A program made the position numbers and the translations under genes. 64,000 nucleotides of DNA from an uncultured Lachnospiraceae bacterium (GTDB lineage Bacteria > Bacillota > Clostridia > Oscillospirales > CAG-272): positions 634-64,633 of the forward strand of contig CAZMPO010000011.1 in the NCBI GenBank assembly GCA_964568425.1, written 5' to 3'. Within the stretch, counting starts at the first letter, position 1; the number at the start of each line of letters is the position of its first letter. Shown here in pieces: positions 5,116-62,783 of this stretch. Under the pieces are notes generated by a model, which had not been told where the DNA came from, did no database searches, and worked only from the letters and a program-made list of their open reading frames with translations.

Positions 5116-5664
5116 TTATTTCTTTTCCACAAGGAAGAAAAAGGGTGATGACGGCGAATTTATTATTTTCAGACAGCTGATCGTGAACTGAAATCTCGAA
5201 TAATCGGAGAGCATCTCGGTGACCATTTTGCCCTCAACCTCGCCCTCGGGATGACCGGGATAAACGGCAATGAGAAGTCCGCCGCCGTGTTCGAGCAGTT
5301 CGATGGCGGTCTTTATCGCCGGGAGAGTGGTCTCGTGCAGAGTTGTGATCGATTTATCGCCGCCCGGAAGCCATCCGAGGTTGAACATACCGACGCATAT
5401 CGGCTCTTTGACATAGTCACCGGCAAGATGATGCGATGCCTTGATCAGCGTGACATTGCCGACACCGTTTTCCTCGAGCAATTTTGCGGTCGAGTCAAGA
5501 GCCTGCTGTTGTATGTCAAATGCATAAACATGTCCGTCCTCTCCGACAGCCCTCGAGAGCCAGAGCGTGTCGTGTCCGTTGCCCATCGTAAAATCGACTG
5601 CAGTCCCGCCCTTTTTTATGTGACGGGATATAAATTCCTTTTCGGTAGTTAAAAGATCGAGCAT
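5116..5664 (-). CDS. mnmM: YtqB/MnmM-like tRNA (mnm5s2U34) methyltransferase (PF06962-type)
   Basis: VDFTMGNGHDT, GHVYAFDIQ, FNLGWLPGGDKSITT, VYPGHPEG closely resemble B. subtilis YtqB as I recall it. Confidence 0.75.
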   Translation of the reverse strand: MLDLLTTEKEFISRHIKKGGTAVDFTMGNGHDTLWLSRAVGEDGHVYAFDIQQQALDSTAKLLEENGVGNVTLIKASHHLAGDYVKEPICVGMFNLGWLPGGDKSITTLHETTLPAIKTAIELLEHGGGLLIAVYPGHPEGEVEGKMVTEMLSDYSRFQFTISCLKIINSPSSPFFFLVEKK

Positions 5665-5695
5665 TAAAGCAGATCCTCCTTAATTGTTTTTATAT

Positions 5696-5733
5696 TTTTT
5701 ATGATCGTTACTTTCGCGAAATATCTTTTCCTA
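5696..5733 (-). repeat. Degenerate fourth copy of the 45-nt leader element, at the downstream end of the RM cassette
   Basis: Minus strand TAGGAAAAGATATTTCGCGAAAGTAACGATCATAAAAA; 20-bp core 5696-5715 matches 8647-8666 at 18/20. Confidence 0.7.
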
Positions 5734-6708
5734 TCTCAAATCGTATCGTGCAAGACCTTCGCGATTTACCACCTCGTAAATTCGTTCCGCAATCCTTCCA
5801 ACAACCGGTACGCAAACAGAATTTCCAATCTGCTTATAAGCATCGTCAATCGTAATGGTATTGGGAAAATAAAAATCTTGAGGAAATCCTTGAAAATCCA
5901 AGCACTCTCGAAGAGTTAACTTTCTAATTCCGAAATCATCAACAACCAACGGAACTTGATTTCGCATTATCCCCATCGAGGCTGTCAAAGTAGGGCACAT
6001 TTGATTTTGCGTTCTTTTTATGCTGTCGTGGTATACACGATATATTGAATCGTGTCTTTTGACGATTTGAGATGCTTGTTTATAAAATTCATAGTCCGGA
6101 GTATAGTAGTAGATATCATGTTTTCTTTGAGATCTTAACAATATATTCTCTATAGAAAAATTCAGCTCCATTTTCTTCGGGAACTCGAACCTATCACAAT
6201 CTTCCTGATCACGAAAAGCAACAATATAGATACGATCCCTAATTTGAGGAACTCCTCCGTACTCAGATGCTCGCAAAACACGGTATCTGATTGAATAGTC
6301 CAAATCAGATAGAACATCATGCACAACAAGAAATGTTTTTCCTTCGTTATGCTCCATCAAATTGGGAACATTCTCAAGAAATACAAATCTGGGTCTATAA
6401 GCCTTGATGAATCTGCCAACTTCATAAAAAAGGTGTCCTCGCTCATCATCAAATCCGCGTTGCTTTCCGGCTATGGAAAATGGCTGGCAAGGAAACCCTG
6501 CCGTTATTATATCTACACGATTCAATGCAGACGGAGCAACATTCCTAATGTCCGTTTCAATCAAATCAACATTTTTAAAATTGTATCGGTATGTCCGACA
6601 ACATGCGGCATCTTTTTCAATAGCCCATGCAACCTTATAACCTGATTGTTGAAACGCAATGTCTATGCCGCCTATTCCTGAGAATAAGCTACCAACTGTC
6701 AATTCCAT
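5731..6708 (-). CDS. DNA (cytosine-5) methyltransferase, specificity unknown
   Basis: FSGIGG (motif I), GFPCQPFS (IV), FLENV (VI), QIRDRIY (VIII), RKLTLRECLDFQGFP (IX), YKQIGNSV (X); ATG 6708 overlaps the REase stop. Confidence 0.9.
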   Translation of the reverse strand: MELTVGSLFSGIGGIDIAFQQSGYKVAWAIEKDAACCRTYRYNFKNVDLIETDIRNVAPSALNRVDIITAGFPCQPFSIAGKQRGFDDERGHLFYEVGRFIKAYRPRFVFLENVPNLMEHNEGKTFLVVHDVLSDLDYSIRYRVLRASEYGGVPQIRDRIYIVAFRDQEDCDRFEFPKKMELNFSIENILLRSQRKHDIYYYTPDYEFYKQASQIVKRHDSIYRVYHDSIKRTQNQMCPTLTASMGIMRNQVPLVVDDFGIRKLTLRECLDFQGFPQDFYFPNTITIDDAYKQIGNSVCVPVVGRIAERIYEVVNREGLARYDLR

Positions 6709-7652
6709 GAACAATTGATCGAAATGATGGAAGCAGGCATGCCGATAATTTGAATATCAAACTTTAAGCTCGACTCAACGTAGGTTGAAGCATTATGAAT
6801 ACGGAAGCTAAATTGCCAACCACCATCCATATACAATTCAACAGTATTGTCACTACCGGGCTTGAAATCAAAGCTAACAATACGGGTAGGCAACGAAGAA
6901 ACAGGTACTATAATCTTCGGTTGCTCTTTGTTGCTTACTCGATTCAATGTTCCTCGGAGATTGTATGTTTGAATCTGTGTAATATTTTTATTGTCTATGC
7001 TTATGACTTTGTAAAAATCAAATTGACCAAGTAAGTACTCCACCATTTTCTTTGGAATGTCATCGTTTTCAGCATTGGCTTTTTTGATTTCATTCACAAA
7101 CGCATTCAAAAGAGGAATGTATATATCTTCTGCTTTGGACGGAAGTTCACTCCATTTCCTATTTGACTGCTTTTCCTGATCAATGTAAGCAAAAATAGGT
7201 CTTATTTCATCCCAATAATTTTGAGAGCAAGGAACACCAAACCATCTATCTCCAAAATCAAGGTTCTTGCCCAAACGACTGTGCTTCACAGCAAAGTGAT
7301 TATGTTTGATGCTCAGCCCAATCTCCCATCTAACATCTTTACGAACAACAATAATATCTCTTACATCTCCAACTTCACCCTTTGTATCAGGCTGGATATA
7401 AAGCTGTAAAGTATCCTTATCTTTTTCAACAATCATAGGCTCCATGTCGAAAAGCGTTGCAACGGCTGCTTTAGCACTAATTGTCAGCACTTCACGTATT
7501 TTATCATCTACAGAGGACCATGCACGTTCCGCTGCGTGCAGACTGCTGTTTTCAACAATCTCAGCAGATCTGATCTTGTTAATTTCTCCAAACAAGGTTT
7601 GAAGACAAATATATTCGTAAGCTCTCCCTTTATCGTTACTTTGGTTACTCAT
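6699..7652 (-). CDS. HaeIII-family type II restriction endonuclease (predicted GGCC)
   Basis: N-terminal [16 protein letters not shown]...[18 protein letters not shown] and FRIHNAS resemble the RE_HaeIII family; coupled to a HaeIII-like MTase. Confidence 0.8.
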
Positions 7653-8647
7653 TTGTTTTCCTCAAATACAGCTTTTATTGCAAGTGCAATTTCATATGCC
7701 AAATTTACAGGCACAGCATTTCCTATCATTTTGTACGCATCATCGGCATTGGTATAAATAAACTTAAAGTCATCGGGAAACCCTTGAACTCTTGCAACCT
7801 CTCTCACAGTCATTCGTCTGTACAAGTGTTCCTGTCCTTCTACAAATCTACAATCGTTATGACCCACCTTAACCATTTTAGGTGCTTGCGGATGTAACTG
7901 ACATTGACGTCCCGATGCCTGAACAGTAAAAGCCTGTTCATTCCAAGACTTAACTCTATTTCGACTCATAAATATCGGTGAATAAGAACCTGTAAAATAT
8001 TCATTGTTGTTAATTGCTTTTGGATTATGTGTATTACGATCTAATGTTGGAACAGCAGTGTCTTTGAGATCCCATATAATATCTCTCAAAGTAATTTTCT
8101 TGTTGTCATCCTCTGTCGATCCCTTCGGAAATTGAAAATCTATATTCAAATCTTTTCTAAATCCAATATAGAAAACTCGCTTTCTTTCTTGTGCTACGCC
8201 GTAATCTTTTGCATTTACCAATGTAATTGAAACATTATAACCACTTTCTTCAAACATGGATACTATATTTTTTACCGCTTCCGAATGTCTGTTAGATAAC
8301 ATTCCACTTACATTTTCGGCAAGAAAAAACTTTGGTTGCTTATCTTTCAGAATTCTGATGTATTCAAAGAAGAGTTGTCCTCGTGCATCATTAATTCCTC
8401 TTAAAGATCCGGCCTCGGACCAACTTTGACAGGGTGGTCCACCTATAATACCATCAATATCATTGGGAAAATATTTTTCTTGAATATTCCGTATATCCCC
8501 CTTAATAAGTTTAGTATGAGGATGATTTATTTCAAAAGTTTCCCATATAGTTTTATCGAATTCGTTAGCAACAGATATCGTAAAACCGGCCTTTTCGAAT
8601 CCCAGATCTAGTCCACCGCAGCCGCTAAATAAGCTTATAATTTTCAT
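7649..8647 (-). CDS. M.HaeIII-like DNA cytosine-5 methyltransferase (predicted GGCC)
   Basis: [27 protein letters not shown]; target-recognition region [34 protein letters not shown] matches M.HaeIII as I recall it; start likely ATG 8647 (alternative 8659). Confidence 0.9.
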
Positions 8648-8692
8648 TTTTATGATCATTGCTTTCACTTTGGCGAAAGCTTCCTTTCCTTG
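8645..8692 (-). promoter_or_regulatory. 45-nt hairpin-containing leader element, copy 1 (RM MTase)
   Basis: CAAGGAAAGGAA-GCTTTCGC-CAAA-GTGAAAGC-AATGATCATAAAA-ATG. Confidence 0.8.
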
Positions 8693-8784
8693 GGAATCGA
8701 GACTGCTCTTACAGAGAAAAAGCTCTGCAAAAGCAAAAAAGTAAAAAGGCAAGTGTGAACACTCATTTTCGGACAAATCTTACG

Positions 8785-10170
8785 TCATTTCCCGACGCAG
8801 AATCGATGGAATATGGCATCGACTATATCGGCAGATACGGCTCTTCCGTCTGTCTGACCTACTGCCTCCATCGCTTTTTCGATATCAAGTCCTGCGACAT
8901 CGGGGGTGAACCCGCCGTCAAGGGCGGATATTGCGTCATTGACAGACGAAAGTGCCAGAGTGATCGACGCGTATTGACGTGCGTTTGCTATCACTGCCTC
9001 GTTATCATAATCGACAAGTCCGGTCGCGAAAAGCTCGGCTACGGCGAACGAAAGCTCGTCAAAGCCCTCTCCGCTCAGAGCGGATACGGTGAGCACCTTA
9101 TCAAAATCAAGCTTTGATATCTCATCGGTGCAAAGAGCCTCTCCGAGATCGGATTTATTTACAAGTGCGATCTTCGGACAATTTTTGTCCTTCAGTGCCG
9201 AAACAAGTTCAATATCGTCATCTGTCAGTTTGGAACTTCCGTCGAAAACGGCAAGCACGAGATCGGCGGACGAAAGTGCCTCAAGCGATCTCTTGACGCC
9301 TATCTGCTCTATCTCGTCCTCACTCTCACGCACACCTGCGGTATCGGTAAGTCGAATGAGCAGTCGGCCGAGGGTTATGCTCTCCTCGATTGTATCGCGT
9401 GTCGTCCCCGCAACAGAGCTTACTATTGCACGGTCTGTTCCGAGCAGGCGGTTTAAGACCGATGATTTACCCGTATTGGGTCTGCCGACAAGCACTGCCG
9501 ATATTCCCTCTCTGACAAGTCTTGCGCTCTCATATCCGCCCGAAAGCTTATTCAGCTTTTCTTTTATCTCGACAAGCGAGTCACGCATCTGCTCGGGGGT
9601 AACATCCGAGAGGTCCTCGTCGGGGTAATCGGCATAAACATACGCCGCGCTTACAAGATCTCGAAGGCTCTCATAGATCTCCGAAAGGCGTGTAGACAGC
9701 CGCCCCGAGACCTGTGAGCGTGCGAGCGATATCTGATCGTCGGTCTTTGCGTCTATGAGATCGATAACAGCCTCGGCTTCGGTGAGTGTCAATTTTCCGG
9801 ACAAAAAGGCACGCCTTGTGAACTCGCCCGCACTCGCCGCGCGTGCTCCCGACGCGAGAGCGGCGGCAAGCACCTTTTCGGCAAGCAGTATGCCTCCGTG
9901 GCAGGATATCTCGACGGTATCCTCTCCGGTATAAGATGAGGGAGCACGGAAGGTCGTGGCGATGCCGTCATCTATGATCTGTCCGTCTGCGATAATTTGA
10001 CCGTAGACAGCGGTTCTCGGCGAAATATCGGTGAGCCCTTTCCCCGAGGCAGGCAAAAACATTGATGACGCAACGGCAAATGCCTCGATGCCGGAGATGC
10101 GTATAACGGCAACTCCCCCTCTGCCGTACGGGGTGGATATTGCGGCGATCGTATCTAACATTTCGATCAT
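8785..10170 (-). CDS. mnmE: tRNA modification GTPase MnmE (TrmE)
   Basis: DTIAAISTP.G.GGVAVIRISG, GEFTRRAF, GRPNTGKSS, GTTRD, DTAG, NKSD, C-terminal FCVGK. Confidence 0.97.
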   Translation of the reverse strand: MIEMLDTIAAISTPYGRGGVAVIRISGIEAFAVASSMFLPASGKGLTDISPRTAVYGQIIADGQIIDDGIATTFRAPSSYTGEDTVEISCHGGILLAEKVLAAALASGARAASAGEFTRRAFLSGKLTLTEAEAVIDLIDAKTDDQISLARSQVSGRLSTRLSEIYESLRDLVSAAYVYADYPDEDLSDVTPEQMRDSLVEIKEKLNKLSGGYESARLVREGISAVLVGRPNTGKSSVLNRLLGTDRAIVSSVAGTTRDTIEESITLGRLLIRLTDTAGVRESEDEIEQIGVKRSLEALSSADLVLAVFDGSSKLTDDDIELVSALKDKNCPKIALVNKSDLGEALCTDEISKLDFDKVLTVSALSGEGFDELSFAVAELFATGLVDYDNEAVIANARQYASITLALSSVNDAISALDGGFTPDVAGLDIEKAMEAVGQTDGRAVSADIVDAIFHRFCVGK

Positions 10171-10171
10171 A

Positions 10172-10966
10172 TCAGTTCTTTGCGTCAAACTCAAGGTTTA
10201 TGTACTTGATGCAAAGATCCATCCAAACAGCCACATGGGGATCGCCTGTCGCAAGTCCTAGTCCGTGATCGCCGTAGGGGAAAACATGAAGCTCGAACGG
10301 GATCTTCTTTGCTGACAGTGCCGCCGCCATCATCAGCGAATTTTCGGGCGGAACGCCTCTGTCGCCGGCGGTCGTCCAGATAAAGCAGTGCGGTGTATCA
10401 TCCCTTACCGATTTTTCGCAAGACATTTTTTCAGCAAGTGCCTTGTCGTACTCCTCGCCGAGCAGGCAGTTTGTGCTGCCCCAATGAGTAAACTCACTGC
10501 CGATCGTGATCACGGGATAGCAAAGCACGGCAAGATCGGGGCGGCAGGATATTTTGTCTATCTCATCGCCGTCATCTCTGCCGTAGTCAAAGAAGCACGC
10601 GGCTGTTGCGGCAAGGTGACCGCCTGCCGAAAATCCGAGAACAGCTATCTTGTCCTCGGCATAGCCGTATTTTGCCGCCATCGATCTGACAAGTCGAACA
10701 GCGCGATTAACATCATTTTGGGGAATCGGGTGTCTGTACGGATTGTGGCGATAACGAAGGATGAACGCAGATATACCGCCTGCGTTGAGTGCGGTGGCGA
10801 TCGGTTCTCCCTCATGTTCCTCGGCGCGGAAGAAATAGCCGCCGCCGGGGATGACGATGACGCACTTATCCGAGCCCTCTATCGTTCGGTCGAGAAGGCA
10901 GGGCTCCTCAAGTCCTTTTTCGGGATCAAAATCGGGTGTGGTCTCCCAAAGTTTAATTACATCCAT
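10172..10966 (-). CDS. Alpha/beta hydrolase (acetylesterase/BD-FAE-like)
   Basis: PGGGY oxyanion motif, GFSAGGH nucleophile, D...VP and HGLGL catalytic His region. Confidence 0.85.
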   Translation of the reverse strand: MDVIKLWETTPDFDPEKGLEEPCLLDRTIEGSDKCVIVIPGGGYFFRAEEHEGEPIATALNAGGISAFILRYRHNPYRHPIPQNDVNRAVRLVRSMAAKYGYAEDKIAVLGFSAGGHLAATAACFFDYGRDDGDEIDKISCRPDLAVLCYPVITIGSEFTHWGSTNCLLGEEYDKALAEKMSCEKSVRDDTPHCFIWTTAGDRGVPPENSLMMAAALSAKKIPFELHVFPYGDHGLGLATGDPHVAVWMDLCIKYINLEFDAKN

Positions 10967-11012: not shown

Positions 11013-11041
11013 ATTATAGCACAGCTTGTACGTCTTGTCAA
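11013..11041 (-). promoter_or_regulatory. SigA promoter for the esterase-mnmE-RM-mnmM-rsmF run
   Basis: Perfect TTGACA-17-TATAAT on the minus strand. Confidence 0.85.
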
Positions 11042-18708: not shown

Positions 18709-18806
18709 TATACAGCATATCGGAATAAGTGCAAAGACAAAAGCAGAAACTACCGTATCGCAATAAAACGGTTATCATACGAACATAATTTTCCGATCAC
18801 AATTTC

Positions 18807-18854
18807 CAAAGAAAGGAAGCTTTCGCCAAAGCGAAGGCAATGGGCATAAAATTG
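18807..18854 (+). promoter_or_regulatory. 45-nt hairpin-containing leader element, copy 2 (topA)
   Basis: CAAAGAAAGGAA-GCTTTCGC-CAAA-GCGAAGGC-AATGGGCATAAAA-TTG; 46/53 ungapped identity (18802-18854) to the reverse complement of 8645-8697. Confidence 0.8.
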
Positions 18855-62729: not shown

Positions 62730-62735
62730 GATCTT

Positions 62736-62783
62736 CAAGGAAAGGAATCTTTCGTCAATGGCGAAAGCGGTGATAACAAAATG
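62736..62783 (+). promoter_or_regulatory. 45-nt hairpin-containing leader element, copy 3 (queH)
   Basis: CAAGGAAAGGAAT-CTTTCGTC-AAT-GGCGAAAG-CGGTGATAACAAA-ATG. Confidence 0.75.

Follow-up and report, generated by a model that had tools for sequence, protein, structure and literature searches.

In described insertions of restriction-modification (RM) units, a compact set of type II restriction (R) and modification (M) genes (<20 kb) lies between conserved genes at a site that is empty in a close relative, with no integrase or transposase, with short flanking direct repeats and with another allele in a sister lineage. In a second class, termed insertion with long target duplication, RM genes are likewise flanked by direct repeats and mobile-element genes are absent; its repeats are >30 bp long, and the empty site contains one copy with which both of them align (Nobusato et al. 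2000; Furuta et al. 2010, PMC2853133). Integron cassettes carry open reading frames (ORFs) that lack a promoter of their own, are oriented with an upstream promoter and have a repeat at both ends of the cargo. Two further systems are relevant to the individual parts of the locus described here, namely, the HaeIII system of Haemophilus aegyptius and its relatives (target GGCC) and the ribosome-binding sites of phage T4 genes 38 and 25, which are split in such a way that an intervening hairpin brings the Shine-Dalgarno sequence back to a working distance from the AUG (reviewed in PMC3014915).

A locus that resembles each of these systems in part lies in a 64,000-nucleotide stretch of DNA (the window) from an uncultured Lachnospiraceae bacterium (assembly GCA_964568425.1, contig CAZMPO010000011.1, positions 634 to 64,633), in which three RM genes, M1, R, and M2, separate the tRNA modification gene mnmE from an mnmM-like methyltransferase gene. 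The locus shares the features listed above for the first group of RM-unit insertions and for integron cassettes, the absence of a promoter being in this case a prediction, and it has in common with the long-target-duplication class the repeat-flanked RM genes and the lack of mobile-element genes. M1 and R match M.HaeIII and the full RE_HaeIII profile, and M1 is preceded by a leader that, as in the two T4 genes, places a stable, covarying hairpin between the AUG and a purine-rich Shine-Dalgarno sequence ∼36 nt before it. There are also differences. Unlike the repeats of known RM-unit insertions, those found here belong to a family of translation leaders of the host lineage, and one of them is used as the ribosome-binding region of the first gene. 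Unlike the HaeIII system, the locus has an HhaI-like second C5 methyltransferase gene behind R, and unlike the T4 sites, its leader belongs to a multicopy chromosomal family that serves seven genes per genome; both the proteins and the leader are known from sequence.

A first-pass annotation of the window had read this locus as a possible integrase-free cassette slot, in which promoterless ORFs entered by recombination at a resident leader element and came to be bracketed by two copies of it. The RM genes are indeed a foreign insertion. The sequence comparisons show this insertion and its boundaries, empty sites that are free of the element and the existence of a leader family, and they reveal neither mobility genes nor terminal inverted repeats nor a target duplication. 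We conclude, however, with a probability of about 0.8, that the insert is an ordinary horizontally acquired type II RM island and not an integron-like cassette slot.

Boundaries of the insertion and the empty site

The genome of the window is referred to as G000 (assembly size, 1.9 Mb). All positions are window positions, and all genes of the RM region are on the minus strand. The features that define the insertion are as follows.

8785 to 10194, minus strand: mnmE, tRNA modification GTPase, left flank of the insert (PF12631, PF10396, PF01926)
5698 to 8786, minus strand: inserted segment, 3,089 bp relative to the empty site of G001, with a 4-nt ambiguity (AAAT) at the joint
7649 to 8647, minus strand: M1, C5 cytosine methyltransferase, close relative of M.HaeIII (GGCC); PF00145, 4e-107; PDB 1DCT (M.HaeIII), E = 1e-141 over the full length
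6699 to 7652, minus strand: R, HaeIII-family restriction endonuclease; PF09556 RE_HaeIII, 2e-140, profile positions 1 to 298 of 298
5731 to 6714, minus strand: M2, second C5 methyltransferase; PF00145, 1e-82; 31% identical to M1; closest solved structure, M.HhaI
5667 to 5697, minus strand: native mnmM ribosome-binding spacer, homologous to the 27-nt spacer of G001 (local alignment score of 61; null, 15)
5116 to 5664, minus strand: mnmM-like S-adenosylmethionine (SAM) methyltransferase gene, right flank of the insert; PF06962, 2.9e-41; 100% amino acid identity to G001

The mnmM-like protein was searched for in 60 relatives, and the DNA upstream of mnmM was then read. In G001, a sister species whose flanks have ∼90% nucleotide identity to those of G000, the mnmE TAA is followed by 27 nt and the mnmM ATG (GGGAAATAAAATAACAATTAAGGAGGATCTGCGTTAATG), and the junction is identical in seven further G001-type contigs from other samples, giving eight independent contigs of this type. 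The two genes are separated by only 22 to 40 nt in G001, G004, G006, and G010, which bears out the suggestion of the annotation that they were once adjacent; in the more distant congeners G013 and G018, mnmM instead follows pheST and a HAD phosphatase gene. Neither a copy of the 20-mer repeat nor one of the leader hairpin is present in the mnmE-mnmM spacers of G001, G004, G006, and G010.

Alignment of G000 with G001 by blastn stops at 5697 and 8787, with an overlap of 4 nt in G001, and thus delimits the 3,089-bp insert. Both 20-mer copies fall inside this segment. The base composition changes with the insert, as expected from the low-GC DNA that had been noted between the two copies: GC content is 31 to 41% in windows lying wholly inside the insert and ∼50 to 55% in the flanks.

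G000 and G001 have identical MnmM-like proteins (100%), whereas the identity is 91% for the neighboring MnmE and 89% for RsmF; the mnmM-like gene itself has 92 to 96% nucleotide identity, and the DNA around it has ∼89%. This conservation could reflect either strong constraint or a recombination tract.

No gene for a recombinase or transposase was found by Pfam searches and gene calls within ∼7 kb on either side, in agreement with the annotation. The neighbors within this distance encode GH43, nucleoside hydrolase, hexapeptide transferase, serine hydroxymethyltransferase (SHMT), hydrolase, MnmE, MnmM, and RsmF proteins, a 335-amino-acid protein without a name (with a weak PHP-domain match only), a ComM-like Mg chelatase and phosphofructokinase (PFK). 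There are no terminal inverted repeats at 5698 and 8786 and no target duplication beyond the 4-nt ambiguity at the joint. The insert therefore lacks all three hallmarks (terminal inverted repeats, target duplication, and transposase) of a transposon, insertion sequence (IS) or miniature inverted-repeat transposable element (MITE). One candidate target duplication, which paired the downstream repeat with the 3' end of mnmE (TCGCGAAAGTAA versus TCGGAAAGTAA in G006), was rejected, as its score of 17 is close to that of shuffled sequences (15 ± 2).

The same junction has been filled a second time. In runs X5 and X9, a short unitig runs from the mnmE end into the mnmM start and skips the island. 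This unitig (joint 5666->8785) was initially a candidate for an empty form within the G000 lineage and proved instead to belong to a different filler, allele B, whose full sequence was recovered from contigs encoding MnmE variants of the same 90% cluster.

L219:6387-6797 and L222:6387-6793: allele B filler

Allele B places 407 to 411 nt between mnmE and mnmM in a lineage whose flanks are ∼95% identical to those of G000. It contains a bidirectional terminator hairpin, a reverse-strand C-terminal fragment of a gene for a leucine-rich-repeat (LRR)-type surface protein (81 amino acids, frameshifted in some strains), a perfect TTGACA-17-TATAAT promoter and a separate ribosome-binding site for mnmM. 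It contains no leader copy, and neither the head nor the tail of the RM insert resembles it. Scans of JGI metagenomes for allele B and for the end of mnmE gave no matches, which indicates that the species is not in that collection. The RM island and the unrelated allele B together indicate that the junction was hit at least twice independently in sister lineages, and never through the element.

These comparisons decide most of what the cassette-slot reading had predicted. An empty site with a single element copy was expected, and RM-free relatives without any copy at the junction had been named as counting against the idea; the site is element free in all eight G001-type contigs, in G004, G006, and G010 and in allele B. 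Different cargo between two element copies had also been envisaged, and allele B is not flanked by the element. What survives is the notion of a recurrently hit junction between mnmE and mnmM; that of an integron-like slot at the element does not. Unlike integrons, moreover, the locus has no integrase of the IntI type and no resident attI-like copy at its empty sites, its downstream repeat lacks an attC-like foldable imperfect palindrome, the arrangement is a single instance and the boundary of the transferred block cuts into the last gene. Nor does the locus match insertion with long target duplication, because the empty site is without a copy and significant similarity between the repeats extends over only 20 nt. 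In the classification of Furuta et al., it is neither a site-specific integration nor an insertion with long target duplication.

It is also extremely improbable that cargo and element are ancestral and that the congeners acquired their short spacers through precise deletion. Direct repeats can recombine and lose the DNA between them, and this possibility has no direct support; such a deletion would leave one copy behind, which none of the empty sites contains. Short spacers also occur in the outgroups G004, G006, and G010, and the GC content of the cargo is foreign.

The repeats and the leader family

The two repeats and the leader copies of G000 are located as follows.

8647 to 8666 (8666->8647), minus strand: upstream 20-mer repeat, GAAAGCAATGATCATAAAAA, comprising the hairpin's 3' arm, the leader spacer and the start-codon A
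5696 to 5715 (5715->5696), minus strand: downstream 20-mer repeat, GAAAGTAACGATCATAAAAA, referred to as the orphan, whose 3' end is the right end of the insert
8645 to 8698, minus strand: intact leader copy, with CAAGGAAAGGAAG, an 8-bp hairpin (8661 to 8680), CAATGATCATAAAA and the M1 ATG
8645 to 8698 (minus strand), 18801 to 18854 (plus strand), and 62730 to 62783 (plus strand): leader copies in the window
C10:33326, C4:58427, C9:7503, and C37:6487: leader copies elsewhere in G000

The leader before M1 belongs to a small genus-specific family of 54-nt leaders, which read roughly CAAGGAAAGGAAG, an 8-bp hairpin, xxTGATCAtAAAA and the start codon, in which AGAAAGGAAG is the Shine-Dalgarno piece. 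Searches with nhmmer and a covariance model found seven copies in G000, seven in G001 and zero to four weaker ones in the other congeners, and no family was assigned to the leader in Rfam at gathering thresholds. The genes behind the leaders include the housekeeping genes topA and dnaB, genes similar to trkH, queH, and rluD and, in G006, metG. Every leader of G000 except that of M1 precedes a gene that also bears a leader in G001, which makes the M1 copy the extra one. With 75.7 bits under covariance model R1, it is the best of the seven G000 copies, and its hairpin has a folding energy of −14.2 kcal/mol (z = −3.3). An apparent exact match in X11 had pointed to topA as the gene whose leader gave rise directly to that of M1; this was a cross-hit, the topA leader of X11 being equal to that of G000.

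The leader hairpin covaries, with compensatory changes at 5 of its 8 pairs and pairing in 96.6% of cells (41 to 52% in slid controls), in a set of 38 aligned matches that were fitted to the model and include a few reverse-strand and weak ones. The leader may act as a split ribosome-binding site. Its 3' arm repeats the GAAAG of the Shine-Dalgarno piece, however, which makes a switch that sequesters the Shine-Dalgarno sequence an equally possible reading. The TGATCA-type spacer and GAAAG resemble what we take to be the complement of the 3' tail of Firmicute 16S rRNA, the assembly having no 16S rRNA gene for comparison. M1 starts directly behind a host-type leader, which bears out this part of the annotation.

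The positions, the shared orientation and the 18/20 identity of the two 20-mers, as first described, are confirmed by the sequence and by a degenerate search. The upstream repeat shares one base with the M1 ATG. The orphan lies 15 nt past the M2 TAG, and neither a start codon nor an ORF follows it. The identity between the two includes an exact run of 11 nt, and a search allowing ≤3 mismatches found only these two sites in the 64 kb, where dinucleotide shuffles give an expectation of 0.02. Across the 1.9-Mb assembly, with ≤2 mismatches, one additional match, the metG ribosome-binding site, brings the total to three.

The downstream copy had been described as a degenerate form of the full element, and this description fails. 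In local alignment of the orphan with the M1 leader (score of 30; null, 14 ± 2), only the 20-mer is significant and nothing is gained beyond it; the leader covariance model does not detect the downstream copy, and the downstream stretch folds no better than shuffled sequences (z = −1.1). The orphan scores almost as well against metG ribosome-binding sites, with 28 in G006 and 25 in G000 (17/20 identities). Its sequence is best taken as that of a local-type ribosome-binding piece that lacks the hairpin.

These scores raise the question of whether the two 20-mers are copies of each other at all. Both could be ribosome-binding sequences of the local type, made up of a complement to the 16S rRNA 3' tail and an A-rich spacer behind it, with the downstream one fortuitous or decayed and of unrelated origin. 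Consistent with this, the metG gene of G000, whose site is the 17/20 match, is preceded by the hairpin-less GAAAGGAATGATCATATAAATG, mnmM itself has GAGAGGAATTGTCACAAAAATG in G006 and G010 and TGATCA-type spacers recur in the leader family; in addition, AGAAAGGAGGTGATC is presumably the complement of the Firmicute 16S rRNA 3' end. An 18/20 match with an 11-nt exact run is rare, though, as the counts above indicate, and since the orphan has no start codon or ORF behind it, functional constraint cannot maintain it now. We consider separate origins quite unlikely; they would in any case leave the RM-island interpretation intact, as the two differ only on where the orphan came from.

Other leader copies were expected to flank cargo elsewhere if the element were a general site of entry. 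In the 20 genus genomes surveyed for leader copies and pairs, no two leaders are <44 kb apart.

Composite structure and origin of the insert

Comparison with other organisms divides the insert into three parts.

8651 to 8786, minus strand: part a, a 136-nt noncoding head containing a 14-bp hairpin (8703 to 8736) followed by the leader (fold z = −3.05)
5771 to 8650, minus strand: core RM block common to other organisms, 2.88 kb, 37% GC (flanks, 50 to 53%), from which the X18 and X19 contigs diverge at 8650 and 5771
5698 to 5770, minus strand: part c, a 73-nt tail with the C-terminal end of M2, the TAG stop and the orphan leader-type piece

The X18 and X19 contigs are 94 to 97% (mostly 95 to 96%) identical to the core block and have different flanks past 8650 and 5771. 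Homologues of R were found at 80 loci in unrelated contexts, mostly in gut and rumen Clostridia and Bacteroidales. At most of these, nucleotide homology begins at 8646 to 8653, at the M1 ATG, and at the six that also carry M2, it stops at 5771 to 5800. The leader is absent from all seven close relatives of the RM block whose flanks were read. Parts a and c are both outside the shared block and missing from the empty site, and the last 13 codons of M2 come from part c rather than from the shared block. The right joint of the shared block thus cuts into M2, which makes it look illegitimate rather than like a precise cassette boundary.

The upstream flank of X18 and X19 resembles L063, where a helix-turn-helix (HTH)-type gene appears to end at the M1 start; this arrangement may represent a controller protein, which the island described here is without. 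The strong 14-bp hairpin of part a (minus strand) is situated in the stretch from the mnmE stop to the M1 leader; a T-run precedes it, and no U-tract follows. Comparable hairpins (TTTTGC...GCAAAA) stand ahead of some other leader copies (C9 in G000; C36, C4, and C12 in G001), so that a longer form of the leader, of ∼85 nt, may exist in this family.

We propose the following history. A GGCC-type RM block of the kind circulating in gut Clostridia and Bacteroidales would have entered a member of this genus and come to lie behind a leader. In this earlier host, it may have replaced most of a leader-preceded gene, or it may have sat before such a gene, whose leader survives as the orphan. That the block gained its head and tail while in a previous host belonging to this genus is the weakest step of the scheme, and we hold this origin of the orphan tentatively, at somewhat less than even odds. 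A fragment reaching from 136 nt before M1 to the A-rich end of the orphan would then have been joined into the 27-nt mnmE-mnmM spacer, probably by illegitimate recombination, and the AAAT common to the right joint and the target is consistent with recombination at microhomology. The M1 leader would now serve as the ribosome-binding region of M1.

Four points weigh against this interpretation. First, the foreign M1 ORF meets a host-type leader no more than 3 nt from its start codon. Second, the right end of the insert coincides exactly with the point at which a start codon would follow the orphan leader piece, and a random illegitimate event does not fully explain these two coincidences. Third, no source of the head and tail was found in the 20 genus genomes or in 400 family genomes, which leaves the two-step history a conjecture. 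Fourth, the restriction activity and GGCC specificity of the island are predictions drawn from homology alone.

The same coincidences are the strength of another explanation, according to which leader-targeted capture of the RM ORFs, by site-specific or short-homology recombination at a resident leader in a previous host of the same genus, duplicated the leader, and the resulting leader-cargo-leader unit then moved to the mnmE-mnmM spacer. It would account for the start of the foreign block within 3 nt of the leader's start codon, for the termination of the insert at the 3' end of the orphan and for the fact that the best genome-wide match of the orphan is the M1 leader (18/20). This pair is, however, the sole one of its kind in the 20 genus genomes, where the other leaders are single and precede genes that bear a leader in G001. 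Further, the significant similarity is confined to 20 nt, with the metG sites close behind; the shared block ends at 5771, 56 nt from the orphan, and truncates M2; the locus lacks a recombinase; and its present target is without a leader. We regard such capture as unlikely. Entry of cargo by recombination at a resident element, as originally put forward, is not supported, given that the RM-free sites lack the element, both copies are inside the insert and no other close leader pair occurs in the 20 genus genomes.

A broader form of the idea is that the leader is a portable docking and expression module, at whose start codon promoterless foreign ORFs are grafted by short-homology recombination, with a decaying leader piece left behind the cargo. 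We give this only a slim chance, which it owes to the same two coincidences. If it were true, the RM island would be the first visible product of a recombinase-free route of gene capture.

Expression, inheritance and GGCC avoidance

Gene order on the minus strand is BD-FAE-type hydrolase, mnmE, M1, R, M2, PF06962 (YtqB/MnmM-type) methyltransferase, and rsmF, and M1 and R overlap by 4 nt. An RE_HaeIII-family endonuclease beside an M.HaeIII-like C5 methyltransferase places the island among type II systems of the HaeIII kind, and GGCC is its likely target. The M1 frame is open for 43 codons further upstream, through the leader (8647 to 8776, minus strand), and automatic gene calls consequently give a 367-amino-acid product starting at TTG; the homology of M1 and its Pfam match both begin at the ATG at 8647.

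11013 to 11041, minus strand: predicted consensus sigma-70-type promoter-like site, TTGACA-17-TATAAT plus TG extension, 12/12, upstream of hydrolase-mnmE-(RM)-mnmM-rsmF

This site, noted already in the first-pass annotation, agrees with the consensus at all 12 positions and has the TG extension. No promoter-like site is predicted in the 136 nt ahead of M1, which makes read-through from the promoter at 11041 plausible. The RM genes would probably be read from it together with mnmE, mnmM, and rsmF.

All recovered contigs of the G000 lineage carry the island at the same place (L182, L163, and L196 to L198). Between X13 and G000, a stretch consisting mostly of insert (5309 to 8656) differs by 2.9% and the flank by 3.9%; X11 differs from G000 at 119 of 3,892 bases. 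Similar divergence of insert and flank in strains that are ∼3% diverged fits a single old insertion followed by vertical descent. The insertion would have occurred once, after the split from a lineage that is now 5% diverged and before the parting of strains that are now 3% diverged, and would have been inherited vertically since.

GGCC is strongly depleted in G000, with 308 occurrences observed and 6,066 expected (ratio of 0.05); the ratios for CTAG and CCGG are 0.09 and 0.38, respectively. Depletion is similar in loci of G001, G013, and G006 and of most congeners (L034, L037, and L040 among the loci). A search for R homologues gave no match in the six GGCC-depleted congeners that it covered, including G001 and G013, with G006 outside the sample. 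Clade-wide depletion in combination with the lack of an R match in several congeners indicates that GGCC avoidance is older than the insertion, and the sequence data suggest that GGCC restriction pressure on this clade is old. With GGCC already avoided, a GGCC system would be able to enter with little damage to the host's own DNA.

For the interpretation of the locus, the outcome is a clean negative: natural empty sites and an unrelated second allele remove the integrase-free cassette-slot reading. A by-product is a small family of hairpin-split ribosome-binding regions that is common to topA, dnaB, and other genes and is now also found before a foreign methyltransferase gene. What takes the place of the cassette slot is a well-dated RM island that interrupts a housekeeping operon of tRNA and rRNA modification genes and is fixed in one lineage of gut Oscillospiraceae. 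As the genome was already almost free of GGCC, acquisition of a GGCC system would have cost this lineage little.

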